DNA of 64,000 nt, from positions 605 to 64,604 of the forward strand of contig JAAZBV010000128.1 in NCBI GenBank assembly GCA_012513605.1, given 5' to 3'. Origin of the DNA: Desulfatiglans sp. GTDB taxonomy: Bacteria > Desulfobacterota > DSM-4660 > Desulfatiglandales > HGW-15. Shown in pieces: positions 542 through 48,266 of the stretch. A model generated the notes under the pieces. The model was not told the origin of the DNA. It saw nothing but the letters and a program-made list of their open reading frames with translations, and did not search any database. Within the stretch, counting starts at the first letter, position 1, and each line of letters opens with the position of its first letter. Made by a program: the position numbers and the translations under genes.

Positions 542-1501
542 TTACCAGCCGCTCGGCGTATTGAATGGGGCCATGACCCCTACAGTATCAATCTGGTGTA
601 TCTCTCCTCCCCAGATTTTGTATATATGCATGGCTATCATGTCAAAGGGATCATATTTTCTTTCTACCTTATCCCTGCCAGGGTCATTAAGAAGCCTGTA
701 CTCCTTTTTATCCATCTTATGACGAAAATTGGAAAAGCCTATTGCAAGCCCGGTCTTTGTATCTGCTATTTCAACCCTCCTATCAACAATGTCACTTATA
801 TATTCAAAATTCTGTAGATTGATCTGGCTCCTGCATGTGACCATGCCCAAAAGACCAGCCGGCCGTGGCGCTGTACCGGGGATACCTACTCCGCCCAAAT
901 GCCCGCCTGTCGGTGCGGTTCGATATCCGTTTTCAATCCTGTCGCAGTCGTCTGCAAAGGGGGCGAGATTACCATTGTTCAGATCAACCGCATCATAATA
1001 TGATTTTGCAATATGGATAAGCCTACCGCGCGAATCCGCGTATTCATATGGTATTTCCATGGGGATGGCAGGCCTCACCTTTTTGAGTGTGTCAGGTATT
1101 TCAGTTCCGCGCAGTAACGAGACAAGGTGCTCTGCCTCAACAATTTTGCCATTGGAAAGTTTTAACCGGAATCCGACTTGTGCGGGTTTTCCTTCGGACT
1201 GCATTATAACCATACCTCCTACTTGTTGTGAAAAGGTATCGGGCACTATTATTTTGAATTCAGTGGGGCCCGCAGTTGCTGTTTTCCAGAGCCCTTCGCC
1301 GGGCTTAATCTGTTTTGCATTTTCCACTGTCCTCGCATCCCTGGCAAAGGACATATTTCCAGGTGTATGTGTCACCAGCGCTGAAAGGTAGTCATCTGCC
1401 ATCTTTATCAGGCACTCACGGTCACATTCAGCAGCAAAAATATTTGAAATATTGAAAGCAAACATTACAACTACTGCCAGTAAGAAAAAAAATCGTCTCA
1501 T
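542..1501 (-). CDS. Secreted protein of unknown function, paralog 1 of a three-member family in this window (two-lobed, possibly NTF2/SnoaL-like)
   Basis: 319-aa ORF. AAGGAG RBS upstream of the ATG. Hydrophobic N-terminal signal (MRRFFFLLAVVVMFAF..FAAE). Shares motifs with 1526-2455 and 42131-43162: G.GLW.TA, KL.NGKI.E.E, PF...C.R.ENG, YI..I.DRR, C-terminal PF...SGW. Confidence 0.75.
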   Translation of the reverse strand: MRRFFFLLAVVVMFAFNISNIFAAECDRECLIKMADDYLSALVTHTPGNMSFARDARTVENAKQIKPGEGLWKTATAGPTEFKIIVPDTFSQQVGGMVIMQSEGKPAQVGFRLKLSNGKIVEAEHLVSLLRGTEIPDTLKKVRPAIPMEIPYEYADSRGRLIHIAKSYYDAVDLNNGNLAPFADDCDRIENGYRTAPTGGHLGGVGIPGTAPRPAGLLGMVTCRSQINLQNFEYISDIVDRRVEIADTKTGLAIGFSNFRHKMDKKEYRLLNDPGRDKVERKYDPFDMIAMHIYKIWGGEIHQIDTVGVMAPFNTPSGW

Positions 1502-1525
1502 AAAATCTCCTTGTTTTAAAATATA

Positions 1526-2455
1526 TTACCAGCCGGAAGTGGCTCCAAAGGGCGCATTCACCATTACTGCTTCAATAGAGATGATCTGTCCATTAACAAT
1601 CTTAAACATCTCGGCCAGGAGCAGGGAACGGGGTTTATAAAATCGTGTTGGAAGTTCATCAAAAGGGGTCGGGAAAAATTCAAAGTCTTCTCTTTTACCG
1701 GGCATATCAAAAATAAACATTCCAAAGACCAGACCCCTTTCCTCATCAGCCATCAGAAAGCGGCGGTCTCTGATCTCCGTGATATAGGCGTAGTTCTTAT
1801 TATCAAACTGTTCCTTGCATCCGGTTGCGATTGTTGCCGGGTTATTGGTGGTCTGGGTGCCGTTTTCAAAGCGGTTACACTCCTTGTGAAAGGGTACTAT
1901 ATCGCCTGTGTTTTGTTCTATGCCTTCAAAATAGCTGTTAGCGATTTTTATCAATTTATCGCGGGGAGAACGCTCCGATTCGGAAAGCACCTTTGCATAT
2001 ATTTGCCTTGGCTCTTTGAGCGCTTCCGGGCTGGCGAATGAGGCCTCATCTTTTCTTGCCACGATAGTCTCAATCTCTGTTATTTTATCGTTTGCAACCT
2101 TTAACCGAACCATGAAATTGGCAAGGAGCATTGATTCTTTGACCACGCCAAACACCATAACCTGACCCACCGAAGGATCTGCCATGTATTGTTTATAGTT
2201 TATCTCCTTTGCCGTCTGAAAAAGCCCTTTACCGAGCTTAATGGGGTAACCGTTCTCTGTGATCTTAACATCCTTTGCAACCACCAGACTTTGAGGATTG
2301 TTTTTTACAAGCTGGCCAAGATAGTTATCCATCACCTTTATCAGCCCCTCTGAACCCATTTTACCGGTTGAGGCAGAGGTATTATTGCAGAGCACAAAAA
2401 GGCACAACAATGAAAAAGTGATAAAAATAAGTGCGTTGATAAAATATTTTTTCAT
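1526..2455 (-). CDS. Secreted protein of unknown function, paralog 2 (tandem to paralog 1)
   Basis: Start chosen at MKKYFINALIF (ATG 2455) because AAGGAG lies 7 nt upstream. Signal peptide present. Same conserved motifs (PFHKECNRFENG, YITEIRDRRF, APFGATSGW). Confidence 0.75.
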   Translation of the reverse strand: MKKYFINALIFITFSLLCLFVLCNNTSASTGKMGSEGLIKVMDNYLGQLVKNNPQSLVVAKDVKITENGYPIKLGKGLFQTAKEINYKQYMADPSVGQVMVFGVVKESMLLANFMVRLKVANDKITEIETIVARKDEASFASPEALKEPRQIYAKVLSESERSPRDKLIKIANSYFEGIEQNTGDIVPFHKECNRFENGTQTTNNPATIATGCKEQFDNKNYAYITEIRDRRFLMADEERGLVFGMFIFDMPGKREDFEFFPTPFDELPTRFYKPRSLLLAEMFKIVNGQIISIEAVMVNAPFGATSGW

Positions 2456-2656
2456 AAGATCTTCTCCTTTAATTAATATCAAAATCCACACCCTATCGGG
2501 GTGATAATGTCAAGAGGCAATGCCTGAACATTATGAACCTACAAAGCCTGATAAATACATTATTGCGTGCTATACCTACACGTCATGCCAGACTTGCCTG
2601 CCAGTCTGTAGCTTTTACGAAGGCTGGATCTGGCATCCAGTTGCTTTGAGAAAAAC

Positions 2657-2730
2657 CTGGATTCCCCGATCATGTCGGGGAATGACGATGGGGGTAGGCC
2701 ATCATTCCACGGCTTGACCGTGGAATCCAG
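2657..2730. repeat. Composite nested palindromic repeat (two hairpins bracketed by CTGGATTCC / GGAATCCAG)
   Basis: ctggattccccgatcatgtcggggaatgacga (2657-2688) and catcattccacggcttgaccgtggaatccag (2700-2730). The terminal 9-mers are reverse complements of each other. Confidence 0.55.
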
Positions 2731-2842
2731 CAAAAGAATCTCTAAAAATAACAAAACGTTGCTTACCCCTATATTACATAAAAGATAGCTGCGAAACTTT
2801 ATTTCATAAACTAGTACTGCAACCTAAACATGCCATAATTCA

Positions 2843-5245
2843 TCAGATTTCTACCTCCATACGCCTGATGATATCATCCTGAACCCCTTTGCCAAGATCA
2901 GTAAAATAGGCGCTGTAGCCTGCAACCCTTACAATCAGGTCCCTGTGATTTTCCGGGTGCTGCTGTGCGTCCAGCAGCTCTTCGTTTCCAACGACATTAA
3001 ACTGTACCCACTTGCCTCCCATATCGCCATAAGTTTTTATGAGAATGCCAAGTTTTGCAAGCCCTTCACTGCCTCCAATAAACGACGGGTGCAGCTTGAT
3101 GTTAAGAAGCGCAGACGCGCATGCTGCCTGGTTGATTTTTGCGGCACTCCTCAGCATGGCTGTTGGACCCTTTATGTCCATGCCCTGGGCCGGCGATACT
3201 GTTCCATCAGATAATGTTGTTCCGGCATACCTGCCGTCAGGGGTTGCCCCGATAATCGAGCCCCCTGCAAACATGGATGAAATCGAGGCTCCTCCGATTC
3301 CCCTCACCTTTGCGTTTGCGGGCCTGCCAAAGGAGCGGTAATTTGATTCCACATCGATCAGAAAATTATAGAGGTCTGCTGCAATCGAGTCTGCATAATC
3401 ATTGTCATTTCCATATTTGGGTGCATTCAGGCATAATCTCCTGATATCATCATTGCCTTCCCAGTTTGCATCCAGTGCCTGTTTTAGTTCTTTAAGGGCG
3501 ATCCTCTTTGTTTCAAATACAACCTGTTTGATAGCCGCAAGCGAATCCGCTGTATTGATAGCCCCAACCGGTATCATTACAGCCCTGAAATCATATGGGG
3601 GTATGGCGTCCCTGTTGGAGAGCGCCTTACCCATCCTGACACCATCATGCATAAGAATCGTCTCAACTATTTCAACAATATCGTTATAACCATAAACATC
3701 CCCTGATCTCCCGGACACAAGAAAGCTGTGTTCATGCCATATACCGATAAAATATTTCAGATAATCCTTAAACCCTGCGATGAATTCTTCAAAGGTTTTG
3801 CTGTCCTCAACATCCGGTTTATGCGGCCCCACTTCCAGCCCGGTTCTAGGGTCTGTTCCATTGTTCAGATAAATTTCAAGAACCTTTGGAACCACAAAGA
3901 ACAGGCCGGCTAAGAAACTCTGTTTGCCAGGGACAGCAGGGTCCACACAGCCGGCCAGGTGATAATCACGGGCCTCAATAAGTGGAATGCCGCCGGATGT
4001 CATGTAGTCAATAAAGGAACCATCCAGCGCAAGGGCTGGCATACCGATACCGGTCTTTACCACCTCCAGGGCCTTGAGCATCAGATCTTCCGGTGTGTTC
4101 TTATGCACCCTCAGGGTAATGGTGTGGTGAGGCGTCCTGACACGGGTTGCCGCCTCAAGGACGAGCCAGGTCAGTTCATTGCTGGCGTCTTTGCCATCAG
4201 CCGTGACACCGCCTATGGTCATGTTGCGCCATTTTGCAAACCCTGAGTGCTGGGAGCGTTTTGCTGCTGAAAGCTTTATATTTTCAGGTCGCATGCTCTT
4301 TACACGCAGTTCACACAGAAGGTCCAGCACCTCTTCATCAGTGATCTTTCCCTCATCCCTCTCTTTTTTATAAAAGGGGTACATATACTGGTCAAACCTA
4401 CCGAAATTATGTGTTGAGCTTGGTGTTGAGATGATCTGGTTGAACCATAAGGACTGCATGGCCTGATAAAAATTATCAGGGGAATTGGCAGGAACAATGC
4501 GGCAGGCTGAGGCAATACGTTCAAGATTTTTCCTGCACACAGCATCTGTTTCCTCCGCCGCCATTCGTATAGCCTCTTCAGCATATCTTTCAGCAAGCCG
4601 GATTATTGCCTTGAGCACGATCAATGAAGCGGTCAGGAATTGTTTTTTGTTAACAGCCTCCAGAGAAAAAAACCTGAGATTTTTAAGCTCTTCCTCGATC
4701 TCCTCTATTATAGGGTTAAGCCCTTTCATCCATCGCCCAAAGTCAGTATAACAATCAGTAAAGTTAAAGGAGAGGCAGAGGCCGCTCCCCGCATAGGCGC
4801 CCCTGAATTCATCCCTGTTTTTCATGGGCGGTAATGTAATACCGACCTTAAGATAGTTAAAGAACCTTTCGTCAAAGAGCTTTGACTGCGCATACTCGGA
4901 ACACCTGGTTGACCAGTACCTGCCCAAATCTCTCATAAGGGGCCAGTCCGCATCATCCATCGAGATAATCCCATCTTCTACTGCGACCCTGATTGCATCC
5001 TCTTTCCAAATGCCCAGGAACGGATCAATCTCTGCCCCCCACGGTTTACTGGCTCCTTCACCAACAAACAGTTCATCCCTGTAAATAATCAGCGGGATAT
5101 TTTCCAGTACATTTGCATGGGCCATGGCATATCTGATTATAGCGGGTTCTCCTTCAGTCTGTTTACAGGACTCTGTAATCAGCCGCGCCTTCTCAAAACA
5201 GAGGGGAAATTTTCCCCTGCGAATCTTAATTGCAGGATCTTTCAT
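2843..5245 (-). CDS. Glycyl-radical enzyme, PFL2/glycerol-dehydratase-like family (substrate unknown)
   Basis: About 800 aa. C-terminal glycyl-radical fingerprint RVAGYSAYF (codons 2909-2929; radical Gly at 2918-2920). Thiyl loop HLAGCVDPAVPG (Cys codon 3947-3949). Start moved to MKDPAIK (5245) to avoid overlapping the upstream gene, whose stop is at 5265. Confidence 0.9.
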   Translation of the reverse strand: MKDPAIKIRRGKFPLCFEKARLITESCKQTEGEPAIIRYAMAHANVLENIPLIIYRDELFVGEGASKPWGAEIDPFLGIWKEDAIRVAVEDGIISMDDADWPLMRDLGRYWSTRCSEYAQSKLFDERFFNYLKVGITLPPMKNRDEFRGAYAGSGLCLSFNFTDCYTDFGRWMKGLNPIIEEIEEELKNLRFFSLEAVNKKQFLTASLIVLKAIIRLAERYAEEAIRMAAEETDAVCRKNLERIASACRIVPANSPDNFYQAMQSLWFNQIISTPSSTHNFGRFDQYMYPFYKKERDEGKITDEEVLDLLCELRVKSMRPENIKLSAAKRSQHSGFAKWRNMTIGGVTADGKDASNELTWLVLEAATRVRTPHHTITLRVHKNTPEDLMLKALEVVKTGIGMPALALDGSFIDYMTSGGIPLIEARDYHLAGCVDPAVPGKQSFLAGLFFVVPKVLEIYLNNGTDPRTGLEVGPHKPDVEDSKTFEEFIAGFKDYLKYFIGIWHEHSFLVSGRSGDVYGYNDIVEIVETILMHDGVRMGKALSNRDAIPPYDFRAVMIPVGAINTADSLAAIKQVVFETKRIALKELKQALDANWEGNDDIRRLCLNAPKYGNDNDYADSIAADLYNFLIDVESNYRSFGRPANAKVRGIGGASISSMFAGGSIIGATPDGRYAGTTLSDGTVSPAQGMDIKGPTAMLRSAAKINQAACASALLNIKLHPSFIGGSEGLAKLGILIKTYGDMGGKWVQFNVVGNEELLDAQQHPENHRDLIVRVAGYSAYFTDLGKGVQDDIIRRMEVEI

Positions 5246-5264
5246 TTTTAAAACCTTTTTAAGT

Positions 5265-6974
5265 CTAGTACCTCTCATAAATCGGTACAAGGTTGCCGTA
5301 TTTTGCAACCAGTTTGTTCCAGTCTTTAGGTAATACTATCTTTTTTGTAACAAGGGCATTATTGAAAAATCCCGGCCCTACGCTCTTTAACAGGCCTATA
5401 AAGGAGCCCGGCCCGCCGGCTACCAGGATCATGAGGTTTTCAGTATCCATTTTAGCCGGATTTGTGACCTCTTCAAAACCGGAGATTACAACCGGTTTGC
5501 TGTGTTCTGCTATATAATCCTTGACCTTCTGCTTTGTATACCCTTCACCTGCCAAAACCTTTGCCCAGGATGGAATAAGAATAACGCTCGACATGCTGGT
5601 GGTACCCATGGTTACAAGGGTATTAAGAATCCCTTTTGCATCTGTGCCACCCGGGACTGTCTGAGTAAAGGAGTTGGGAAAGAAGACTGTTACAGTGTTG
5701 TCTTCTTTCGTAAAGCCGCGCTCAACACTCAAGGGCTCCCAGGGGCTATTCTCTTCATCCTCACCTATCACAAGGCTGTACTTGCCGGGGTTGCCTATGA
5801 CACCCATGTCCTCGATAGCCTTTCTTGCCCCGCCGATATTCTTTACGATCAGCCCCACAGCCCTGCCGATTGCGGAATTGGCGATATTGCCCGGGCTCAA
5901 CGATCCGGAACCGGAATTGACATGTATATCTCTTCTGATAGGGCCGTTTATGGTAAGGGATGGGGCCCATGAACCTGTGCTCACCTCAAATGTATCAAAC
6001 CTCGCCTTTGGATCTGAAAATGCCTCCACTGTTGCGATCAAAACAGGCATGTGGGTAGGGAGCGCACCTGCCATAACCGCGTTGATGGCTATCTTTTCGA
6101 TGGTGGCCTTTCCTTTTCGCGGTATGATCTTTCCCATAATATGATCGGGCGGAAGATCAGTCCCTTTGAGCATCTCTGCTACTGCCGCTTCAGTTGGCGG
6201 AATAATAGGCAGACCATCGCCCCACCCCTTGCGGTAAAAGAACTGGTTTATCTCCTGAAGTGTCCCCTTAAAAGCAACCCTTGGGCTCTTGCCTGTCTGC
6301 TGTTTCGGGGATTTCTCTTCGGCCGTAAGAGGTCTGACCAGGGCATCAACAGCATCCTTCATGGCGGCTGCTACACCCTCTTCAATATCAGCAATGATGG
6401 TAGATTCGCAGGGCACTGTTTCTCCTATAACCCTTATCCCGGGCATTCCCTTGCTTGAAGCGGCTGAATGGGCATCATTAACAAAACCTACATTAGCCAG
6501 TAACACGACCGGCTTATTAAAGTCCTCGACTGATATTCCGGTATAGACGAGGTACTTTGTGCAGGAGCCTCAGTCACCTACCAGGAGAATTGCTGCGTCA
6601 ATATCATTTACCCATGCAGTAAATTTCTCTTTATTTTTTGTCTCGATCTCATTCACATTCGGCTCTGTAGATTGAAAAATGGTTGTCTGGATATCGGGGT
6701 ACATCTCCTTCAGTCTCTTATCGACTGATTTTGCCATGGGCATGGCTGCACGTTTAGTGTTGACGTATAACCCGATCTTTTTTCCTTTTAGGCTATCGAG
6801 CCTGGGAGAGATTCCACGCATGGGGATCGGGTCTACATCTGCCCAGGGGCTTAATGCCTCATATTGAATTTGCTTTTCTGTACCGGAATTTCCTGCGTCT
6901 TGAGCCATGGATGACCCCTGAAAAGCGAAAACGGCCAGAAGCCCTGTAAAAAGTGCTGATAATAATCTGTTCAT
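5265..6974 (-). CDS. UGSC-motif selenoprotein: signal peptide, flavodoxin-like domain with a U-G-S-C redox motif, and a C-terminal domain of about 400 aa of unknown function. Requires readthrough of UGA at 6572-6570.
   Basis: ORFs 6570-7028 and 5265-6506 are in the same frame and are separated only by a TGA. Readthrough gives ...DAAILLVGD-U-GSCTKYLVYTGISVEDFNKPVVLLANVGF... The start MNRLLSALFTGLLAVFAFQGSSMAQD (6974) is preceded by AAGGAG. A stem-loop follows the UGA. Confidence 0.7.
6519..6558 (-). promoter_or_regulatory. Candidate bacterial SECIS stem-loop
   Basis: It begins 12 nt 3' of the UGA: AAAGUACCUCGUCUAUACCGGAAUAUCAGUCGAGGACUUU. Hand folding gives about 15 base pairs (AAAGU/ACUUU, CCUCG/CGAGG, CU/AG, AUA/UAU) with one bulged A, a U-U mismatch and an apical loop CCGGAA. 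Confidence 0.45.
6570..6572 (-). other. In-frame UGA, candidate selenocysteine codon
   Basis: The plus strand reads tca at 6570-6572. On the minus strand the context is gta ggt gac TGA ggc tcc tgc (V G D U G S C). Confidence 0.65.
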
Positions 6975-7053
6975 GTCAGTCTCCTTTTCTTTTAAATTTG
7001 TTTTTATTACATGGCTTATAAAAAGCATATATTGAACCTGCTTTTTACGCCTT

Positions 7054-8010
7054 TTAACTTTCTCTTATCACACCATCACGAATAATAAGCTTTGGATGCC
7101 TTTGTTTCTTATATAAAGGTATGCCGCTGCCTTCTTCCTCTGTTATCAGGCTCCTGAAGCGGCGCAGCTCCCCATACTCTTCCATTGGTTCAGCGAGTTT
7201 TTCAAAGATCGATGTCATTGTGTTCATCATATTATCCGCTATATCCCAGTTCACCTCCATGGCGCCTGTTGGGCAGAGCTGTTCACATAACCAGACCATG
7301 CAGGGGCCGCAGGTATTATAGTTTATTTTTGGTGAATCGGCCAGATCAATGCTTTTAGTGGGACAGTTATCCATGCATTTAGTGCATTTGGGATAAAGGC
7401 ATATATCCGCATTATGCACTGGCTTAAGTTTAACCATATCGGCCATTCCCTCTCCGCCGCCAAGGTCCATTACTGCCCCGTAGAGTTTATCGTATTCTTT
7501 CCTGTCAGGTAATTCCGGTATGAGGTGAGTATCTCCCTGTGCTATCCTCAGGCTGCGCTGAGTGATATCCTTTCCGAACTCCCTTGCCTCTTTCAGGTCG
7601 ATTTTATCAGGGTGTCCATCAGTATAATATGGTTTTGGCATGAGCGGTATGAAACCGCTGCCATACCAGTCATTCCAGCCGGTAACTGTGAGCCCCTTTC
7701 TCCTTAGCCCTTTTACCACCCTTTCTATGTAGCCCCCTGCGCATGTGCCGTGTGTGCAAAAGGTAAATCCATATTTGCCTGTCAGATCAGGCATGGCACT
7801 AATAAAATCTGTTACAGGAGCGGGCTCCTGAAAACTCTGCACAAAGGAGCCCAGACCAATCAAGTCATATTTTGATAATTTATTGATATCCACATCCTTC
7901 ATAGGTGCGATATCACATTCATTAAAGAGCTCTTTGATGCCGGAGTGTATTTTCTCAGCTATCTGTTTTGTGTTCCCTGTCCATGAGTGGTAGATTATTA
8001 TACTTCTCAT
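7054..8010 (-). CDS. Flavodoxin-domain / 2x[4Fe-4S] ferredoxin-domain fusion protein
   Basis: N-terminus MRSIIIYHSWTGNTKQIAEKI (flavodoxin-like FMN loop). C-terminal CLYPKCTKCMDNCP and CGPCMVWLCEQLCP cluster motifs. AAGGAG RBS before the ATG at 8010. Confidence 0.8.
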   Translation of the reverse strand: MRSIIIYHSWTGNTKQIAEKIHSGIKELFNECDIAPMKDVDINKLSKYDLIGLGSFVQSFQEPAPVTDFISAMPDLTGKYGFTFCTHGTCAGGYIERVVKGLRRKGLTVTGWNDWYGSGFIPLMPKPYYTDGHPDKIDLKEAREFGKDITQRSLRIAQGDTHLIPELPDRKEYDKLYGAVMDLGGGEGMADMVKLKPVHNADICLYPKCTKCMDNCPTKSIDLADSPKINYNTCGPCMVWLCEQLCPTGAMEVNWDIADNMMNTMTSIFEKLAEPMEEYGELRRFRSLITEEEGSGIPLYKKQRHPKLIIRDGVIRES

Positions 8011-8106
8011 ACAAATATTCTCCTTCTTAATTTTTAACGATACCAAATAGTAGCAGGGAAAATATAATATAGTTGCCCGAAATTATTGTAATCTGCTATC
8101 TTTCAC

Positions 8107-8192
8107 GGGCAGGCACGGGGGCCTGCCCCTACAGATTATAATTATTTCCCTGTACCCTGTGCCCTGAGCCCTGTACCTTGAGCCCTGTCTCA
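8107..8192. repeat. GC-rich repeat block (CCCCTAC-type hairpin plus CCCTGT/GCCCTGA short tandem units)
   Basis: gggcaggcacgggggcctgcccctacag (8107-8134), followed by ccctgtaccctgtgccctgagccctgtaccttgagccctg. It overlaps the 3' end of the MFS gene. Confidence 0.5.
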
Positions 8193-9418
8193 ACCCTATC
8201 CATCTCTTCCAGCGCCCTGCGCCTGCGGTAATATGATGGCAGCAGCAGGATAAATACAACAATGGCCATCAGTATCACCAGTGAAGCTGATTCAAACATA
8301 ATAGAATAATTATACATATCATACACCATACTGCCTAAAACAGGACCGAGAAAAAGGCTTACATCTATGCCGATATACAGGGTATTGCTGGCAACCCCTC
8401 TCTTAAGGGGTGTTTCGGAAAGCATGCACATGGAATACATTGCAGGCTGAAATGCGCCGAATCCTAAAGATGCAACAGCTGCGCCAATGAGCATTGTGCC
8501 GATTGTTTTCGCTGATCCTATTATAATAAATGAGAGGGCCATTATTATCAGGCTTGGGATAAGAATCCTGGTTAATCCGTATCTATCGGTCAGATAACCG
8601 CTTGCCGGTCTTGTAATTACAAGGACTCCTGCCAGTACAGTATAAAATGAGCTTATCCCCGAAATATTGAGCTCTTTTGCATACTCAACAGTATACACAT
8701 TATATAATGACCACCCTAAATAAATAAAAAACATAACCAGTGCCATGGGAATCGCATGAACAGAGGCTATATTTTTATACCATGCCCCTGTGCTTAATAT
8801 ATCTTCCTTTGTTTTTTTATCCGGTAAAAGAAAAAGACCCGGAATGAGCCCCAGAAATGAAATAACCGCTGCAAAAAGAAAAACAGATGTAAATCCAAAG
8901 TTTTCATTTTTTAAATTTGTGCCAAAGTTCAGAATGCTTATTCCCAGGGTTGGCGCCAAAGCCATACTGAGTGATGAACTGAGCCCGTAAATCCCCATCC
9001 CGGAGGCCATTTTTTCTTTGGGAAGGTTATCCCCGGCCAGGGTCATCGTAAGGGTTCCTACAAGTGCATACTGAAGACCATGAAGCAGCCTGAAAGCGAT
9101 AAAGGCAGATATATTATCAAAAAGCGCGTAACCGATATTTGCAACTCCACCGATAAAGAAAACCAGTATCATCAGTTTTCGTTTGTCAAATTTAGTAAGA
9201 ACCGGGCCTGATATTGGCCGCATTGAGAAGGCGACACCAAAAAAGATGCCTGTTAAGAGCCCCATAATATGGGCGCTGGCCCCCAGATGAAGGGCATAGG
9301 AGGCAATAAGAGGATTTATGGCAAAATGTGAAATGGCGAGTATAAAGGATATCAGCAATATACAAATAAAATTACGGTTCCATATTGTGACCGGCACCCC
9401 TGTTTTTGAACTCTTCAA
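8129..9418 (-). CDS. MFS transporter
   Basis: 429-aa polytopic ORF with about 12 hydrophobic segments. TTG start with AAGGAG 7 nt upstream. The last ~20 codons (ETGLKVQGSGHRVQGNNYNL) are encoded by the repeat block. Confidence 0.85.
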   Translation of the reverse strand: MKSSKTGVPVTIWNRNFICILLISFILAISHFAINPLIASYALHLGASAHIMGLLTGIFFGVAFSMRPISGPVLTKFDKRKLMILVFFIGGVANIGYALFDNISAFIAFRLLHGLQYALVGTLTMTLAGDNLPKEKMASGMGIYGLSSSLSMALAPTLGISILNFGTNLKNENFGFTSVFLFAAVISFLGLIPGLFLLPDKKTKEDILSTGAWYKNIASVHAIPMALVMFFIYLGWSLYNVYTVEYAKELNISGISSFYTVLAGVLVITRPASGYLTDRYGLTRILIPSLIIMALSFIIIGSAKTIGTMLIGAAVASLGFGAFQPAMYSMCMLSETPLKRGVASNTLYIGIDVSLFLGPVLGSMVYDMYNYSIMFESASLVILMAIVVFILLLPSYYRRRRALEEMDRVETGLKVQGSGHRVQGNNYNL

Positions 9419-9613
9419 GTAATGACTCCTTTTTGACCTCGGTTAATTATATTGACACAATATGGACTTTTGTATACTTGTATACATTAGTAATGATTTT
9501 GGCAAGAACAGAGTGCTGAAATTTCAAATTCATCTGTGAGCCATCAATATTTTTATCGGGTTTCAATATGCTCGATTAACCATCCTGTAATAAATTACTA
9601 AAGGAGATTTACC

Positions 9614-10960
9614 ATGAATAGATCAATAAAGTTGCGTTATGGATTTCTGGTCAACTGCCTGTTCCTGTCACTGTTAATCCTGACAACAATCGGAAGTCAG
9701 ATAACCTTTGCAGCCATTGCTCTTCCCGGTCACGCGCCGGAGGGCTTTAACAAAATCAGACCGGATATCCCGCAAGGTAAGCTGGAGACCATTACCTATA
9801 ATTCAAAGAGTATAGGCGTAGATCGCAAGGCGGTCGTCTACACCCCTCCAAACTATGATCCGAATAAAAAATATCCGATTCTCTACCTGATGCACGGGAT
9901 AGGAGGAAATGAGACCCATTGGACAACCCTCTGCTCAGCCAATAAGATCCTCGATAACCTGATTGCTGATAAAAAGGCTGTGCCAATGATCATTGTAATG
10001 CCTAACGGACGGGCCACAGCCGAACCGCCTTCAGGTAATTTCATGGCAGACTTTAATTACTACGCCAACCTTGAGCCGGACCTGCTGAATGATTTGATGC
10101 CCTATATTGAATCACATTATTCTGTAAACAAGAGCAGGGACCACCAGGCCCTTACAGGCCTTTCCATGGGAGGAGGTCAGGGGCTTAATTTCGGGATCAA
10201 CAATATCGACAAATTTGCATGGGTAGGCGGCTTTTCTTCTGCACCCAACCTCCAGCCGCCCACTGTTCTCGTACCCAAGATTCAGAATGCCAAGGAAAAA
10301 CTGAGCCTGCTCTGGATAGGCTGCGGGGACAAGGACAACCTGATTACTGGAAGCTGGAACCTGCATAAGGCCCTGGATGAGGCAAAAATTAATCATGTAT
10401 GGTATCTTGATTCAGGGGTGCACGAAGTCCCTGTATGGGATAATAACCTGTACCTGTTCGCCCAGATGCTCTTTAAACCCGCAGGATCAGTTACGCCTCC
10501 GCCCTCTATTGGAACATATGACGGCACCCAGCCGATCAGTATGGGAATGGGGATGCCGGGCATGGGCCGTGGCCCAATGCCGGGGGCCGGTGCACCCGGT
10601 GGCGGGGTCAATTCCGAGTTTACGGCAACAAGAGAGAATGGCGGGAGTTCATCAAAGGGGATCGCAGGGAAATGGATCGCAAAGGATGGTGACAACAATT
10701 TAAAGTATGATTTCAGGGTTGATGGCTCCATACTCACAGGCACCATCGAGAATACGCAAATGCCAGGGGCAATTGAGATTAAGGATGGAACAATACAAGG
10801 AGACAATCTCTCTTTTTCCTATGAACGCAAGATGGGTGAACAAAGTTTTACTATGAAATGGACAGGAACCCTTTCAGGCAATGAACTCAAGCTGAAACGC
10901 AGCCTCGGAGGCGGTATGGGCGGCTTTGGAGGCGGAGGGATGCCGGGAGGTGGACGCTAA
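9614..10960 (+). CDS. Secreted esterase (esterase-D/CE1-like alpha/beta hydrolase, feruloyl/acetyl-xylan esterase type) with Gly/Met-rich linkers and a C-terminal beta-rich domain
   Basis: Signal peptide. YPILYLMHGIGGNETHW and the nucleophile elbow GLSMGG. Low-complexity GMGMPGMGRGPMPGAGAPGGG and a C-terminal GGGMGGFGGGGMPGGGR. AAGGAG RBS. Confidence 0.8.
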   Translation: MNRSIKLRYGFLVNCLFLSLLILTTIGSQITFAAIALPGHAPEGFNKIRPDIPQGKLETITYNSKSIGVDRKAVVYTPPNYDPNKKYPILYLMHGIGGNETHWTTLCSANKILDNLIADKKAVPMIIVMPNGRATAEPPSGNFMADFNYYANLEPDLLNDLMPYIESHYSVNKSRDHQALTGLSMGGGQGLNFGINNIDKFAWVGGFSSAPNLQPPTVLVPKIQNAKEKLSLLWIGCGDKDNLITGSWNLHKALDEAKINHVWYLDSGVHEVPVWDNNLYLFAQMLFKPAGSVTPPPSIGTYDGTQPISMGMGMPGMGRGPMPGAGAPGGGVNSEFTATRENGGSSSKGIAGKWIAKDGDNNLKYDFRVDGSILTGTIENTQMPGAIEIKDGTIQGDNLSFSYERKMGEQSFTMKWTGTLSGNELKLKRSLGGGMGGFGGGGMPGGGR

Positions 10961-11075
10961 CAGAAGCGTTGGGTTTACACAATCCAAAGCTTTAATAGGG
11001 TACGGAGTTAAGTAATATGTGAAAAGATGATTATCTGCTTTTTATTATTGATAGATAAATCAGATACTCTGTAAT

Positions 11076-11123
11076 GCAAAGGCAGTTAAGGTTTTTATCT
11101 TAACTGTCTTTTGCTTTTTATTT
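11076..11123 (+). terminator. Rho-independent terminator downstream of the esterase gene
   Basis: gcaaaggcagttaag / cttaactgtcttttgc imperfect stem, followed by tttttattt. Confidence 0.55.
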
Positions 11124-11206
11124 AGGTGGTTAATGCAAACCAATCTTTAGAGGCTCTGAAGGTTGAATCAATGTGGGTAAATATTCCAAAAAATGATAAT
11201 AAAACG

Positions 11207-11404
11207 TCAAGCCGCATTTTTTGCTAACAGCTCGCGAACTGCAGGAATAAGTTCATTTGGAACTTCAACAAAAGTCTGAGATATATCTTCCCAGGCAGCT
11301 TCATCTTCTGCAACAGCTTCTTCCTCTGTCTGGCTCTCATAATGATCAAGGACACATTTTACACGTTCTTCATCCCACCCTTTTGGAAACCTGTTTTTTT
11401 TCAT
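11207..11404 (-). CDS. Small acidic protein, putative antitoxin partner
   Basis: 65 aa (MKKNRFPKGWDEERVKCVLDHYESQTEEEAVAEDEAAWED...). Its start overlaps the stop of the upstream 94-aa ORF at 11404. Confidence 0.45.
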   Translation of the reverse strand: MKKNRFPKGWDEERVKCVLDHYESQTEEEAVAEDEAAWEDISQTFVEVPNELIPAVRELLAKNAA

Positions 11405-11688
11405 CAGTTTATTCTCCTTTTCCCCCTGCGCTTAAACGCCTTTAGAGGCTTTCCTTTTAATTCATAAGCAGTAATTACGAATATACTATCAGGCTCAGAG
11501 TCCTGAACATAAATAACCCGAAGATATTTGCCACCCCTTGTCTGACCAATTGCGATCCGAGAATTTTCTTTACCTCGTCGATCTTCGCTTGGTTTCTGTA
11601 ACACATCCTTCACTTCATTTTCCTGCACATCATGATTGTAAATATGAGGCAGATTTGTTTCTGGATCTATGTAATAGCGAATTTTCAT
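11404..11688 (-). CDS. Small basic protein, putative toxin of a type II TA-like pair (family not identified with confidence)
   Basis: 94 aa with a basic C-terminus (KAFKRRGKRRIN). Overlapping two-gene cassette flanked by AT-rich non-coding DNA. Confidence 0.45.
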   Translation of the reverse strand: MKIRYYIDPETNLPHIYNHDVQENEVKDVLQKPSEDRRGKENSRIAIGQTRGGKYLRVIYVQDSEPDSIFVITAYELKGKPLKAFKRRGKRRIN

Positions 11689-11989
11689 TTTATTATATCA
11701 GAATACAGTTTTTGGTCAAATTTCCGATGCGAAGCAAATTAAATGATAATTTTTTTGCACACAATATATGAAAATACATGTGTCGGGTCAAGAAAAGAAT
11801 ACGTTGAGCAAGCGGCAGGTAGGCCGATGACTCTTTGCAATTTTATCAGGTGTGGATTCACCTCGCACTAAGTAGAAAAACACATACAATTCCTCACCAA
11901 AAAAATGACATTAGGCACATTCCCCTCCTTAACTTGACATCAGTACACCCGGTACGAAACTGGAAAAAATGTTTATTTAGGAAGGAGTT

Positions 11990-12976
11990 CTATGTTTTAA
12001 CCCTTGATCCTGTTTTTATCTTCCCTAATGAAAGATATCGCTGCAGCAGGATAAAGATACACAAAAGGATGCCGATAAAGACCTTTGTCCACCAGGTGCT
12101 CAGGTTCCCCTGAAACGTGATGATGGTCTGGATCAGCCCCAGGATCATGACACCGATAACTGTTCCCTCCATAAAGCCCACACCGCCTGTTAAAAGGGTT
12201 CCCCCGATAACAACAGCGGTAATTACATCCAGTTCAAGTCCTGTGCCGGCAAGCGGGTATCCAGCAAGGGTATAGAGGGAATAGACCAGCCCCCCTGCTG
12301 CACAGATGGTGCTGTTGAGGGTGTATATGAGGATTTTGCTCCTTCCAACCGGAAGACCCATTAGGATGGCAGATTTTTCATTATCGCCTATGGCATAAAT
12401 ATTTCTGCCGAAACGTGTATAATGCAGGATATATGCGCCAAGCATAGCCATTACAATAAAGGTAACCGCATAGGCAGGTAGCCTGATTCCATTACCCAGT
12501 GGAATAGAAGCCTTTGAGATAGTGAGAAAAAGTTCATTGCGGATGGGCACAGAGTCAAGGCTTATCACGAAGGATAGCCCCCTGGCCAGAAACATCCCGA
12601 CAAGGGTTACAAGAAAAGGGGGCATTTCAAGAAAGTGTATCATGCTTCCCATAGTAAAGCCCAGCACTGCGCCGCAGAGGAGGCAGATGAAGATAACCAT
12701 AAATGGCGATATGCTGGTGCGTGATAGCAGGTTTGCACATAAAACCCCGGTAAATGCGACAAGAGAACCAACAGAGAGATCAATCCCTCCTGAGATGATG
12801 ACAAAGGTCATGCCAATGGCGATGATGCCGACAAAGGCGTTATCTATAAAGAGGTTAATAAAAACACGGAGAGAAAAAAAGCCTTTATAGGCAAATGTAC
12901 CTGAGAGATAGATCAGGATGAATACCAGAAAGGTTGAAAGGATTGGTATATTTTTCTGGCTTAATCGAAATCTCAT
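11990..12976 (-). CDS. yjfF: Sugar ABC transporter permease, YjfF-like (furanose importer)
   Basis: 328 aa. Strong resemblance, recalled from E. coli YjfF, e.g. GIIAIGMTFVIISGGIDLSVGS and LSTWWTKVFIGILLCIFILLQR. 4-nt overlap with the upstream permease gene. Confidence 0.8.
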   Translation of the reverse strand: MRFRLSQKNIPILSTFLVFILIYLSGTFAYKGFFSLRVFINLFIDNAFVGIIAIGMTFVIISGGIDLSVGSLVAFTGVLCANLLSRTSISPFMVIFICLLCGAVLGFTMGSMIHFLEMPPFLVTLVGMFLARGLSFVISLDSVPIRNELFLTISKASIPLGNGIRLPAYAVTFIVMAMLGAYILHYTRFGRNIYAIGDNEKSAILMGLPVGRSKILIYTLNSTICAAGGLVYSLYTLAGYPLAGTGLELDVITAVVIGGTLLTGGVGFMEGTVIGVMILGLIQTIITFQGNLSTWWTKVFIGILLCIFILLQRYLSLGKIKTGSRVKT

Positions 12977-14031
12977 GATGGCCTGTCTCCTGAATGTAAA
13001 ATAAGCGAGAGCTGATCCCGCAGTTTTTTAGACTGGATCAGCGCCACCATGATGATTATTACTGCCTTGAATACCAGCACGACCTGGGGCGGGACACCGC
13101 GCGTAATGATGGTTGTTGTAAGGGACTGGATAATAAGTGCCCCGATGATAGCGCCAGCCATTGAAAAACGTCCTCCGTTTATGGTCCCCCCGATAATAAC
13201 AGCGGCGATTGCATCCAGTTCCATAAATATTCCTGCATTGTTGGCATCTGCTGCCTTTATATCCGCAGTAATGATCAGACCTGCAAGGCCAGCGCAGAAC
13301 CCTGAAAAACCATAGGTTAAGGTTGTTATCATCCTTACCGGTATCCCCATGTAACGGCTTGCAAGGGGATTTGCGCCTGATGCCTCAATGAAAAGCCCGA
13401 GTGTTGTTTTTCTGGTAATGGCCCAGGTGAGAATAAAGAGGAGAATCACCATGATAACAGGGAAGGGCAGCCCCAGGAAGAAACCGCTTCCTATGAACTG
13501 GAAGGGTGCATGCTCAAATACAATGATCTGCCCGTGTGTGATTAACTGTGCAATCCCCCTGCCCACTGTCATGAGTATAAGTGTGGCGATAATAGGCTGG
13601 ACACCTATGTAAGCCACAAGAAAGCCGTTCCATAACCCCAGAATGATTGATAGCACAAGAGGCACAAGAAGCACTATGATCAAAGAGGTCTGGTCACCAT
13701 ATTCCAGGATGCCTTTAACATAATCAGGCCTGATAAGCTGCGCTGCTAAAGCCCCTGAGATGGCAATGATTGCGCCCACTGACAGATCAACGCCCCCGGT
13801 TGCGTAAACCAGGGTCATACCGATTGTGATAAGTATAACCGGCGCACCCCTGTTGAATATATCTATCAATGAGCCGAACAGGTGACCGTTCTTTATCTCA
13901 ATGTGGAAAAATCCATCTGTGAAAATCAGATTGAATAAAAGTATGGCTATAAAGGCGAGCAGGGGATAGATGATGCTCAGGTCTGAAGAGCCAGGGTTCA
14001 AAAGAGATCTCTTTTTCTTAACAATGTTCAT
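12973..14031 (-). CDS. ytfT: Sugar ABC transporter permease, YtfT-like
   Basis: 352-aa polytopic protein of the CUT2 permease family (TIGMTLVYATGGVDLSVGA). Overlaps both neighbouring genes by 4 nt. Confidence 0.8.
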   Translation of the reverse strand: MNIVKKKRSLLNPGSSDLSIIYPLLAFIAILLFNLIFTDGFFHIEIKNGHLFGSLIDIFNRGAPVILITIGMTLVYATGGVDLSVGAIIAISGALAAQLIRPDYVKGILEYGDQTSLIIVLLVPLVLSIILGLWNGFLVAYIGVQPIIATLILMTVGRGIAQLITHGQIIVFEHAPFQFIGSGFFLGLPFPVIMVILLFILTWAITRKTTLGLFIEASGANPLASRYMGIPVRMITTLTYGFSGFCAGLAGLIITADIKAADANNAGIFMELDAIAAVIIGGTINGGRFSMAGAIIGALIIQSLTTTIITRGVPPQVVLVFKAVIIIMVALIQSKKLRDQLSLILHSGDRPS

Positions 14032-15560
14032 AATCTCTCTCCAGTGCCTTCCTGAGCAAGTGTTGTCATGATTGTCTCTTCAGATATATTTTCGCCCGAA
14101 ATCTCCCCTACCTTTTTTCTGTCCTTCAGTATTGCGACACGGCTGCATGTGTGAACGATCTCTTCCAGCTCAGAGGAGATAAAGAGGATGCTGCGGCCTT
14201 CCTCCCTTAACCTGAATATCAGTTTCTCTATCTCTGCCTTGGCGCCCACATCAATACCCCGTGTGGGTTCGTCCAGTATCAGGAGGCGCGGATTCATGGC
14301 CATCCAGCGGGCAAGGATAACCTTCTGCTGGTTTCCACCGCTCAAGGTTCCGGCCTTCTGCTCTCTGCCTGATACCTTTATCTTTAACAACTCTATATAT
14401 TGGTCTGTTATTCTATCCTGTTCCTTCCTTGATATGCTCCTCAAGAAACCTCTGCGGGACTGTAGCGGTAGAACGATATTTTCTCTTACTGTAAGATCCG
14501 GGATAATGCCTTCGGTTTTCCTGTCTTCAGGGCAGAAGGCTATTGAATGAGAGATAGCATGCCTGGGAGAGTGAATGGCAACAGGTTCATTGTCTATTTC
14601 CATTGTTCCGCCTGTGGGCCTGTTAATGCCGAAAAGGAGTTTTGCCACCTCTGTACGCCCTGAGCCAAGCAGCCCGGCCAGGCCAACCACCTCACCTTCG
14701 CATATCCCAAGATCAAACGGAAACAGGACACCCTTTTCTTCTACATTATTGAGGGTCATGAAGGGTTCTTTTTGTGAAGGTGTCTCTTCAGCTCTTTTAC
14801 CTGATGATACCATCTCCTGTTCCAGCTCCTTACCCAGCATCTTTGATATCAACTGAAAACGCGGAAGCTCTGCTGTTTTGTATTCACCGATAAACTGCCC
14901 GTTTCTTAAGACCGTGATTCGGTCTGATGTCTCATATACCTGGTCAAGAAAGTGTGTAATAAAGATGATGCCCATTCCTTCATCCTTAAGCCTCTTCATT
15001 GTCTTGAAGAGGTTTTTGCATTCCGCCATGTCAAGGCTGGAGGTTGGTTCATCCAGGATCAGGATATTTGCCCTGATATCAATGGCCCTTGCTATGGCCA
15101 CCATCTGCTGGATAGCTGTGGAGAAAGAGGAGAGGGGGAGGGTTACATCGATTTCAAGATCGAGTTTGGCAAGGGCATTTTTGGCATTCATGTTAATGGC
15201 CTTCCAGTCAATCCTGATGCCTTTCATGGGCTGGCGGCCTATAAATATATTTTCCGCTACAGAAAGATTGGGGAGCAGATTTATCTCCTGGTATACGGTG
15301 CTGATTCCCTTACTGGCCGCATCCATGGGGGATGAGGCATCGAACTCTTTGCCTTCAAATTTAATGGAACCGCTGCCTTTTTTATGGACTCCTGTAAGCA
15401 CCTTAATCAGGGTGGATTTACCAGCGCCATTTTCACCCATGAGCGCATGGATCTCCCCGCGCCTCAGGGTGAAATCCACAGCGTCAAGGGCCTTAACACC
15501 GGGGAAGCTCCTGGTCAGGCCTCTTATTTCAAGCAAAACATTGCCAATATCTGGCATCAA
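14028..15560 (-). CDS. ytfR: Sugar ABC transporter ATP-binding protein with duplicated ATPase domains, YtfR-like
   Basis: 510 aa. Walker A GENGAGKST. Signature LSGGNQQKV. Two nucleotide-binding domains, typical of CUT2 systems. Confidence 0.85.
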   Translation of the reverse strand: MMPDIGNVLLEIRGLTRSFPGVKALDAVDFTLRRGEIHALMGENGAGKSTLIKVLTGVHKKGSGSIKFEGKEFDASSPMDAASKGISTVYQEINLLPNLSVAENIFIGRQPMKGIRIDWKAINMNAKNALAKLDLEIDVTLPLSSFSTAIQQMVAIARAIDIRANILILDEPTSSLDMAECKNLFKTMKRLKDEGMGIIFITHFLDQVYETSDRITVLRNGQFIGEYKTAELPRFQLISKMLGKELEQEMVSSGKRAEETPSQKEPFMTLNNVEEKGVLFPFDLGICEGEVVGLAGLLGSGRTEVAKLLFGINRPTGGTMEIDNEPVAIHSPRHAISHSIAFCPEDRKTEGIIPDLTVRENIVLPLQSRRGFLRSISRKEQDRITDQYIELLKIKVSGREQKAGTLSGGNQQKVILARWMAMNPRLLILDEPTRGIDVGAKAEIEKLIFRLREEGRSILFISSELEEIVHTCSRVAILKDRKKVGEISGENISEETIMTTLAQEGTGERL

Positions 15561-15585
15561 TATCTCATCTCCTTGTTAAACAACA

Positions 15586-15711
15586 GGGCAGACGCAGGGG
15601 TCCGCCCCTACGTTATTTTTACCTGGCCCCCTATCCTGTCAGGTGCAGCTTCAGAAAAGGCCGAAATTTTATAAGTTCTGGCTGACATCTGAACGCTGAT
15701 TGCTGAAAGCT
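15586..15711. repeat. Intergenic repeats: CCCCTAC-type hairpin plus a GGCTGACATCTGA-CGCTGA-TGCTGAAAGCT unit
   Basis: gggcagacgcaggggtccgcccctacg (15586-15612). ggctgacatctgaacgctgattgctgaaagct (15680-15711) recurs almost identically at 20825-20856. Confidence 0.6.
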
Positions 15712-15717
15712 GCCTTT

Positions 15718-16677
15718 TTAATACTTCCTGCTCCCTATTGCCTCAGCGGCAGTCTCCTGCGGAAACACCCCCTCTTCTGTTACAATCTTTTTAGGTACAG
15801 ATTCACCCTTTGCCAGCGCCTCCACTGCATCAAAGAGCTGCGGCCCAAGGAGCGGGCTGCACTCAATAGTGCAGTTCAGCTTTCCCTCTATCATTGCCTC
15901 AAATGCGCCTCTTACAGCATCAATGGAGACAATGATAATATCTTTGCCAGGCGCCAGTCCATATGCCTCTATCGCCTGTATGGCGCCTATGGCCATGTCA
16001 TCATTATGTGAAAAGAGGACATTTATGTTTTTACCTTCAGTCTTAAGAAATGCCTCCATTATCTCCTTACCGCCTGACCGGGTGAAATTCCCGCTCTGGC
16101 TTTTAATGACCTCCATTCCCGGATGATCTTTTATAACCTCCTCAAAACCCTTCTTTCTGTCAATAGCAGGGGCAGAACCCACAGTACCCTGAAGTTCCAC
16201 TATTTTCACATTCGTGTAGCCATTTTCAACGAGCCAGCGTGCGGCCCTGCGGCCCTCCTCAACAAAGTCTGAGCCCATGAATGTCACCCATAAAGAGTCA
16301 TCCTGCACATCCACCCCGCGGTCAATCAGGATAACAGGTATACCCGCATCCTTGGCTTCCCTCAGAACCGCCTCAAATCCGGTTTCAACAACAGGAGAAA
16401 ATGCGATAACATCCACGCCCTGGGCAATGAAGTTCCTGATAGCCTTGATCTGGTTCTCCTGCTTCTGCTGGGCATCTGAGAAGATCAGCTTTATGTTGGC
16501 CCTTTTTGCCGCCTCGCTCCGGATGGATTCGGTATTGGCGACCCTCCATGCACTTTCAGCCCCTATCTGTGAGAAGCCCACAGTAATGGTGCCGTCATCT
16601 TTGGCTGTCTGTGAACAGCCTGAGATGAATAACAGAGCTGCACAAATTATAGCAGCGATCTTGATTTGCTTTTTCAT
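15718..16677 (-). CDS. ytfQ: Periplasmic sugar-binding lipoprotein, YtfQ-like (galacto-/arabinofuranose-binding type)
   Basis: 319 aa. Lipobox FISGC. Periplasmic-binding-protein type I fold motifs. First gene of the YtfQRT-YjfF-type set. Confidence 0.8.
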   Translation of the reverse strand: MKKQIKIAAIICAALLFISGCSQTAKDDGTITVGFSQIGAESAWRVANTESIRSEAAKRANIKLIFSDAQQKQENQIKAIRNFIAQGVDVIAFSPVVETGFEAVLREAKDAGIPVILIDRGVDVQDDSLWVTFMGSDFVEEGRRAARWLVENGYTNVKIVELQGTVGSAPAIDRKKGFEEVIKDHPGMEVIKSQSGNFTRSGGKEIMEAFLKTEGKNINVLFSHNDDMAIGAIQAIEAYGLAPGKDIIIVSIDAVRGAFEAMIEGKLNCTIECSPLLGPQLFDAVEALAKGESVPKKIVTEEGVFPQETAAEAIGSRKY

Positions 16678-48245: not shown

Positions 48246-48266
48246 ACTTTTCTAACAGGAGTAAAT

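Follow-up and report, generated by a model that had tools for sequence, protein, structure and literature searches.

A 64,000-nucleotide stretch of a Desulfatiglans sp. contig (JAAZBV010000128.1, positions 605–64,604; hereafter the window) very probably carries, on its minus strand from 6974 to 5265, one gene encoding a 569-residue selenoprotein, although two genes are called there. Selenocysteine (Sec, U) would be inserted under the direction of an RNA structure, the protein would be exported, and a Sec-Cys redox pair would act together with a C-terminal partner domain. The UGSC family to which it belongs is already known; the exported, fused form is new.

A single gene annotated as two

A single minus-strand frame ran from an ATG (6974–6972) to a TAG (5267–5265), and its sole interruption was a TGA at 6572–6570. 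Two called open reading frames (ORFs), 6570–7028 and 5265–6506, shared this frame and were separated by 66 nt. The first-pass annotation had proposed that they were one frame broken only by the TGA, and this was confirmed, with homology running across the TGA. The read-through product was of 569 residues (...AAILLVGD-U-GSCTKYLVYTGISVEDFNKPVVLLANVGF..., also written LLVGD-U-GSCTKYLVY), and its U-G-S-C motif was located at residues 132–138 (VGD-U-GSC). The features of the gene were as follows.

5265–6974, minus strand: complete selenoprotein coding sequence, 569 codons plus TAG, with UGA at codon 135 (homology on both sides of the TGA)
6981–6986, minus strand: ribosome-binding site AAGGAG, with a 6-nt spacer to the ATG at 6974 (same arrangement in relatives)
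6570–6572, minus strand: UGA, selenocysteine 135 (aligned codon TGA in 159 of 176 homologous copies)
6561–6563, minus strand: Cys138 (TGC), partner of Sec in the U-G-S-C motif (conserved across Sec and non-Sec forms)

Searching with the read-through protein retrieved 3,382 relatives, the best 120 of which were all C-terminal fragments of 392–427 aa with inconsistent starts. The N-terminal piece as query retrieved 120 proteins of 131–154 aa, every one terminating in VGD directly before the stop; those with a source name were, all but one, labelled “hypothetical protein”. Gene callers produced an identical split (135 + 412/413 aa) on three contigs, and every clade member examined in public databases was entered as two split “hypothetical proteins”. 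These entries agree with a reading of the locus as two independent genes, in which the TGA is a true stop and the second protein begins at the GTG at 6506. This reading is nevertheless highly improbable. A single Pfam domain (UGSC) crosses the junction, indicating that the two ORFs are one gene, and the 22-codon stretch separating the TGA from the GTG was kept as protein (GSCTK[YF]L..IED[FL]GKPVV). The caller's GTG had no ribosome-binding site ahead of it and fell inside the loop (CGUGUU) of an RNA hairpin (hairpin 2, below), the starts chosen by callers varied over 392–427 aa, and uninterrupted homologues of ~560 aa exist. Homologues did not stop here and give way to a separate downstream gene: the TGA was in frame in 159 of the 176 copies and the protein was conserved on both sides of it.

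Eleven same-frame TGA junctions were present in the window, and homology extended across the one at 6572–6570 alone. A second read-through candidate, at 48243, was rejected as an ordinary stop between UbiE-like and ThiF-like genes. There (47541–49004, plus strand), a UbiE-type methyltransferase gene stops at TGA 48243–48245 and a ThiF/MoeB-like gene begins 24 nt further on in the identical frame, indicating that TGA terminates translation normally in the source organism.

Conservation of the TGA and substitutions at the Sec position

The codon for residue 135 was located in 176 UGSC-domain copies from 80 genomic and 80 metagenomic loci (numbered L001 onwards). It was TGA in 159, Ala in nine, Met in five, Val in one and Cys in one, and one copy showed an apparent frameshift. 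The TGA forms came from Desulfatiglans, Acidobacteriota, Dehalococcoidia, other Chloroflexota, Nitrospirota, Gammaproteobacteria and others, the closest being from Desulfatiglans (95% identity over the C-terminal ORF), and the motif on the flanks of the TGA was GD-U-G-[SAG]-C-T-K-[YF]-L.

The frameshifted copy (L138:409) had GAG at the Sec position and a disrupted upstream frame, probably as the result of a frameshift, of decay into a pseudogene or of faulty assembly. This copy is the observation in favour of regarding the window gene, too, as a pseudogene or a sequencing error, with a nonsense mutation in a once-intact gene. This explanation is refuted by the comparative data and can practically be dismissed: the TGA was shared by 159 independent copies from several phyla, and purifying selection acted on both sides of it, with added synonymous constraint downstream.

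Among 120 uninterrupted fused homologues, the Sec position was occupied by Ala (82), Met (33), Asp (3) or Val (1) and never by Cys, and the Cys of GSC was retained in 115 of them. Conservation of Cys138 was 100% in the two TK-type Sec clades, 96% in distant Sec forms and 87–98% in non-Sec forms.

A structured RNA element downstream of the UGA

The two hairpins below occupied the 84 nt following the UGA in the clade of the window gene.

6519–6558, minus strand: candidate selenocysteine insertion sequence (SECIS) hairpin 1, nt +15 to +54 from the UGA (frozen synonymous sites CTC, GAG, AAG and TTT; 93.9% of cells paired; coherent register switching)
6495–6514, minus strand: hairpin 2, nt +59 to +78, 7-bp stem, loop CGUGUU (96.3% of cells paired; synonymous constraint)

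Hairpin 1 had a 10-bp stem with one bulge, extended by four further pairs in most relatives, and a variable 19-nt loop; the loop of hairpin 2 was CGUGNU across the clade. The 40-nt stem-loop noticed shortly past the UGA in the first-pass annotation was real, with an 11-nt spacer, and it passed tests of synonymous constraint, covariation and recoding.

In this clade the rate of synonymous differences was 0.53 gene-wide, and the lowest 12-codon windows (0.16–0.29) all lay within ~30 codons past the UGA. Stem codons were invariant (Leu CTC, Glu GAG, Lys AAG and Phe TTT) and loop codons were free. The Dehalococcoidia-type Sec clade was constrained directly at the UGA (0.28–0.32 vs. 0.58), and in the non-Sec clade no synonymous constraint was detected after the Sec-equivalent site (0.57–0.65 vs. 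0.62; rank 82 of 430). Over the two Sec clades, the minimum of the gene lay directly past the UGA, at 0.19–0.32 against 0.55–0.58.

In an alignment of 31 sequences, 94.9% of cells could pair, as against 26–46% for slid partners, and five pairs covaried on both sides, a number reached by none of 500 shuffles. Pair 59–78, for example, was A-U in 12 sequences, C-G in 12 and G-C in two, because changes in a Lys/Thr/Arg codon are matched at the silent third position of an Ala codon lying 19 nt from it. The window segment folded at −23.4 kcal/mol, compared with −15.6 ± 3.1 kcal/mol for synonymous recodings of the identical peptide (z −2.5); the mean z was −2.3 for the clade and −0.75 for non-Sec homologues. 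Stand-alone UGSC genes had a compact hairpin, GUCGUGGA-GUG-UCCACGAC, ~13 nt past the UGA with compensatory variants, and no common hairpin was found at this site in Ala/Met forms. An Rfam scan of the window gave no matches. Together, these sequence comparisons indicated that the RNA structure downstream of the UGA is under selection.

Selenocysteine machinery beside orthologues

Genes for the machinery of Sec insertion were found next to fused UGSC selenoprotein genes of relatives at three loci, all belonging to a sister clade whose proteins lack a leader peptide. In L107 (2089–5054), the fused gene was followed by a SelB gene (TIGR00475, 386 bits vs. a cut-off of 242), a thioredoxin reductase (TrxR)-like gene and tRNA-Sec. 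In L021 (3535–12745), SelB was directly upstream and SelA directly downstream, with tRNA-Sec ~4 kb beyond. In L101 (1495–2562), SelB was beside the orthologue.

An alternative is that the UGA is read through without Sec, by an alternative code or by near-cognate suppression, with insertion of Trp, Gly or Cys. The lack of Sec machinery in the window and the near absence of Cys-for-Sec orthologues would fit it. On the other side, TGA terminates genes normally elsewhere in the window, read-through was confined to a single gene in the 64 kb, the U-x-x-C motif comes from a recognised selenoprotein family, the structured element after the UGA is restricted to TGA forms, and selA, selB and tRNA-Sec lie beside orthologues. 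We therefore regard this alternative as very unlikely. Strong comparative evidence favours decoding of the UGA at codon 135 as Sec, which would be carried out by SelB and tRNA-Sec and directed by the mRNA structure just downstream.

The UGSC domain

6336–6818, minus strand: UGSC domain (Pfam PF24696), residues 53–213, predicted flavodoxin-like alpha/beta fold (hidden Markov model, homologue model and Foldseek)

The read-through protein matched PF24696 with 76.5 bits (gathering threshold 25) over residues 53–213, covering positions 15–171 of the 172-position profile and running across the TGA; all 37 diverse relatives tested also matched it. The family label “UGSC family (seleno)protein”, cited in the first-pass annotation, does exist as NCBIfam NF041046. 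The match to that profile (positions 2–146 of 147) scored 60.2 bits, under the equivalog cut-off of 125, as would be expected of a fused and diverged member.

The closest uninterrupted homologue, P0190 (44% identical, a non-Sec form), was modelled with a mean predicted local distance difference test (pLDDT) score of 94.4 and a predicted template modelling score of 0.93. Its N-terminal domain was parallel beta/alpha, and its weak Foldseek neighbours in the PDB were the flavodoxin-like flavin mononucleotide reductases SsuE, MsuE and NQO2 (E ~1e-3, template modelling (TM) score ~0.45–0.5 on the target). The Sec-equivalent residue, A107, was the last loop residue between strand 99–105 and helix 108–123, and C110 was in the first helical turn. 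The model thus upholds, as a prediction, the proposed placement of Sec at the end of a strand in a flavodoxin-like beta-alpha-beta pattern. By analogy, Sec135 would lie in the strand-helix loop of the UGSC domain and Cys138 in the first helical turn.

A thioredoxin-like fold has been assumed for UGSC (PMC2398784); such a fold is contradicted by the flavodoxin-like model. A sequence-profile search of the Protein Data Bank (PDB) with the full-length protein and with the UGSC domain gave nothing significant, only a sub-threshold similarity to the glycine loop of FtsZ. Kinship with GrdB/PrdB was not supported: none of the 37 UGSC domains matched PF07355 even at E ≤ 1, and an NCBIfam “GrdB-related” match was sub-threshold (14.9 bits vs. 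175, E 0.016).

The C-terminal partner domain

5268–6299, minus strand: C-terminal partner domain (C-domain), residues ~226–569, with the motifs GWxDGLPIIPPT, ATxEKIAINAVMAG and GEDEENSPW (homology searches and model)

As had been noted from the sequence, the Sec domain was fused to a large uncharacterised region. This C-domain of ~345 aa had no Pfam or NCBIfam model and no relative in the PDB by sequence; a model of the C-terminal part of the window protein had a pLDDT of 87.4. The domain made up a very large family of 4,738 clusters at 50% identity (E ≤ 1e-3; 926 at E ≤ 1e-30), whose proteins had ~350 aa when it stood by itself, ~560 aa when it was fused and ~715 aa when it was duplicated. 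Duplicated proteins of ~710–740 aa included P0258, P0264, P0266, P0267 and P0274.

The C-domain was fused to UGSC in 121 TGA copies, and many loci had a small UGSC gene with TGA beside a stand-alone C-domain gene; fusion together with gene adjacency suggested that the two parts work together (a Rosetta-stone argument). Judging from this fusion and fission and from gene context, the C-domain would be an obligate partner that binds a substrate, probably a small molecule. ORFs of the family numbered 154, in 72 of the first 80 loci, and two or three paralogous UGSC-fusion genes were present in L008, L016, L018, L019, L025, L088, L111 and others. Ser354 of the window protein was considered as an oddity, with Cys in 37 of 37 close database homologues, and was set aside as natural variation because the position was Cys in only 50% of clade loci.

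A predicted export signal in one clade

6903–6974, minus strand: predicted Sec-pathway signal peptide, residues 1–24 (K/R n-region and hydrophobic core in 118 of 120 clade members; small-x-small|Q in 112 of 120)

The N-terminus was described in the first-pass annotation as a cleavable signal peptide of the Sec secretion pathway, and the comparison bore this out, with n- and h-regions in 118 of 120 clade members. The leader, MNRLLSALFTGLLAVFAFQGSSMA|QD, was divided into MNR, LLSALFTGLLAVFAF and QGS-S-M-A|Q, with a 15-residue core and S-x-A at −3/−1. Across the clade it was 24–30 aa long and kept its character while its sequence drifted, and the maximal 12-residue Kyte-Doolittle window of the h-region was 2.4–3.3. 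A twin-arginine motif (S/T-R-R-x-F-L-K) was not conserved: the window protein had N-R, and the clade varied (NR, NK, RR, RK and YK). A Dehalococcoidia-type clade of ~50% identity and all non-Sec forms were without the leader and began at a conserved YEVLSPWAE. In L009 (~5530–5640) the leader MKRFIPILAMAVITFMATSSC... ended in a lipobox-like sequence, which may mark this protein as a lipoprotein form within the exported clade.

The strong hydrophobicity of the h-region (2.4–3.3) would also suit an uncleaved membrane anchor that holds the enzyme at the periplasmic surface of the inner membrane. We consider an anchor rather unlikely, since small-x-small|Q was kept in 112 of 120 members at a fixed distance from the core and the short leader of 24–30 aa evolved like a signal peptide. 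By the positive-inside rule, the bulk of the protein would be outside even with an uncleaved leader. From the conserved leader, the favoured course is that the Sec pathway would carry the pre-protein across the membrane and that cleavage behind Ala24 (S-M-A|Q) would yield a periplasmic protein of ~545 residues. An exported selenoprotein is unusual, as had been remarked, yet precedent exists (MccSep and SaoB, below).

A proposed redox centre and a thioredoxin-reductase-like neighbour

A TrxR-like flavoprotein gene (~310 aa, CxxC at ~residue 134; TIGR01292, 309 bits vs. 343) lay within 4 kb in 12 of 39 leaderless Sec loci and six times within 120 bp; loci that it adjoined included L026, L101, L110, L115, L119, L120 and L122. 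It was found within 4 kb in none of 21 exported-clade loci and none of 16 non-Sec loci. The presence of this neighbour in the sister clade supports a dithiol/selenol redox role of U-x-x-C, and its absence fits an exported clade without a partner linked to NAD(P)H. Sec135 and Cys138 would form a redox centre cycling between selenol/thiol and selenenylsulfide. For the leaderless sister clade, NAD(P)H would be the electron source and the adjacent TrxR-like flavoprotein the intermediary, a neighbour that the exported clade does not have.

A different chemistry was suggested by other cysteines of the family. Non-Sec homologues kept, besides the GSC Cys (98%), three C-domain Cys at window positions 304, 331 and 402 (100%, 90% and 93%), and the weak top Foldseek matches of the C-domain were three-Cys [4Fe-4S] hydro-lyases (6mso and 9fsl). 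The protein might then be a selenoprotein in which the U-G-S-C pair is a metal- or cluster-binding site and the C-domain an Fe-S-type enzyme resembling hydro-lyases. We give this a low probability. In the clade of the window protein the triad positions were Ala, Val and Val (0% Cys), leaving only Sec and one Cys; the TM-scores of those matches were 0.2–0.26; Sec-pathway export sits poorly with a pre-assembled cluster; and the TrxR-like gene beside sister-clade members indicates dithiol/selenol chemistry.

At least two triad Cys were present in none of 29 leader-bearing forms (all Sec), in eight of 57 leaderless Sec forms and in 14 of 15 non-Sec forms. This cross-tabulation fits replacement of a Cys-ligated (metal?) site by a Sec-Cys couple suited to unfolded export, in a pattern that is confounded by phylogeny. 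A broader scheme, offered as a conjecture of low probability, is of a widespread two-part enzyme (thousands of clusters) with two interchangeable redox centres: a four-Cys, possibly Fe-S, centre bridging the domains in cytoplasmic non-Sec forms with Ala or Met at the Sec position, and a cofactor-free Sec-Cys selenenylsulfide enabling unfolded export and periplasmic work. In the same scheme the SECIS would be unusual in consisting of two hairpins, the 40-nt hairpin bringing the distal hairpin with its GUG loop near the UGA.

Points against the selenoprotein reading

Several results weighed against the reading of the gene as an exported redox selenoprotein. No selA, selB, selD or tRNA-Sec was found in the 64-kb window. 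Cys stood in place of Sec in only one of the 176 copies (TGC), with Ala or Met instead, which is atypical for a catalytic Sec. The absence of Cys-for-Sec orthologues, which the first-pass annotation had held would speak against a selenoprotein, was therefore nearly realised in form, and it was outweighed by the other evidence.

For the RNA element, a dinucleotide shuffle of the hairpin region was not significant (z −0.84), and it was replaced by the synonymous-constraint, covariation and recoding tests. RNAalifold favoured a different helix, formed by nt 3–10, UGA included, with the 3′ arm of hairpin 1 (47–54). In that helix G6-C51 changed to C-G in three sequences, and the invariant Ser codon TCC at +7 to +9 would fit it; the two structures may be a switch between two conformations. 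The spacing of a canonical bacterial SECIS from the UGA is shorter than that of hairpin 2. Hairpin 1 has a variable 19-nt loop and hairpin 2 a remote position, and either may be the element that binds SelB.

For the protein, the full-length fold was taken from P0190 and not from the window read-through protein, a Foldseek search with the C-domain gave no convincing neighbour (best E 2.7e-3, TM 0.26), and the signal peptide was assigned by residue-pattern heuristics.

Neighbouring genes

2843–5248, minus strand: co-directional glycyl radical enzyme (GRE) gene, 19 nt behind the selenoprotein gene, a probable operon partner in the closest sub-clade only (context)

No neighbour was universal across loci. 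The GRE (PFL-like plus Gly_radical) had its best NCBIfam matches to the PFL2-3 subfamily, sulfopropanediol dehydratase, CutC and HypD, all far under the cut-offs, and no radical-SAM activase was found among the nine other neighbouring ORFs scanned (542–16677). A GRE gene was adjacent in the window, in L001, in L162/163 (GRE 86% identical, on an otherwise different contig) and in three distant loci; among clade loci with enough flank, it was adjacent in only one of 19. Adjacency as sparse as this was read as local synteny, and the GRE as a general functional partner was rejected, its adjacency being confined to the closest sub-clade and the three distant loci.

Immediately upstream of the selenoprotein gene (7054–8046, minus strand) was a gene for a flavodoxin domain with 4Fe-4S ferredoxin motifs (EFR1-family, 70.8 bits vs. 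75), conserved in L001 only; a major facilitator superfamily transporter gene was also upstream. Two paralogous proteins of ~320 aa without a Pfam or NCBIfam match were encoded at 542–1501 and 1526–2491 (minus strand). Their relatives (25–86% identity) occurred near the clade selenoprotein gene in L001, L003, L005, L062, L087 and L161; the L001 copy had a signal-peptide-like leader and the L161 copy was tagged PF26061 DUF8021 in precomputed annotation. These paralogues may be a periplasmic partner. A uroporphyrinogen decarboxylase (URO-D) family protein (PF01208) followed the selenoprotein gene in L161 (9261–10592), in the place of the GRE, and a 45%-identical URO-D homologue was encoded in L070 (3118–4449), where the C-domain stands alone and UGSC is encoded by another gene.

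Relation to known systems

The UGSC-containing protein is a selenoprotein family predicted by Zhang and Gladyshev (PMC1976440, PMC2398784) and recognised also in PMC13188914. It was among the most abundant selenoprotein families in the Global Ocean Sampling (GOS) data, with 255 Sec vs. 21 Cys sequences (PMC2398784), and a review of 2026 continued to class it as functionally uncharacterised. A fusion termed “UGSC/Unknown_1” had been reported from the GOS metagenome in 2008 (PMC2398784, Fig. S1A). Unknown_1 may or may not correspond to the C-domain; neither a signal peptide nor adjacent partner genes were described there, and neither was Ala/Met substitution or a TrxR-like context.

Classical UGSC members share with the window protein the domain, the U-G-S-C motif with UGA-encoded Sec and a hairpin, and the preference for Sec over Cys. 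They are stand-alone proteins of ~150–175 aa (the NCBIfam profile has 147 positions), whereas the window protein has 569 aa with a leader and the C-domain, and their compact 8-bp hairpin differs from the long stem and second hairpin of the window gene.

The redox X-x-x-C pair at a helix N-terminus resembles those of TrxR/thioredoxin and AhpF/AhpC relays, but the UGSC acceptor domain is not of thioredoxin fold and the sister-clade reductase is under the TrxB cut-off (343). GrdA/GrdB and PrdB (PF07355) have a Sec motif of U-x-x-C type (PrdB is listed as UxxC in PMC2398784), and the way in which a small selenoprotein there works with a bigger protein that binds the substrate recalls, by analogy only, the split UGSC and C-domain. 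Experiments placed Geobacter MccSep in the periplasm after cleavage of a 25-aa signal peptide (bioRxiv 10.1101/2025.11.18.688581), and SaoB proteins are predicted exported substrate-binding selenoproteins (bioRxiv 10.1101/2022.07.06.499078). Like the window gene, both are annotated in two pieces around an in-frame UGA, have a SECIS-like hairpin past it and begin with a signal peptide, but they differ in having unrelated folds and chemistry (multihaem cytochrome; ABC-transporter binding proteins).

Implications

The split “hypothetical protein” annotation of these genes can be corrected, and the C-domain, with its 4,738 clusters at 50% identity, merits a family model of its own. UGSC is abundant in aquatic metagenomes, and the locus described here, with its relatives, opens the family to testing in several ways: an obligate fused or adjacent partner domain, a likely TrxR-like electron donor in the cytoplasmic clade, a clade predicted to be extracytoplasmic, and the replacement of Sec by Ala or Met together with a Cys triad.

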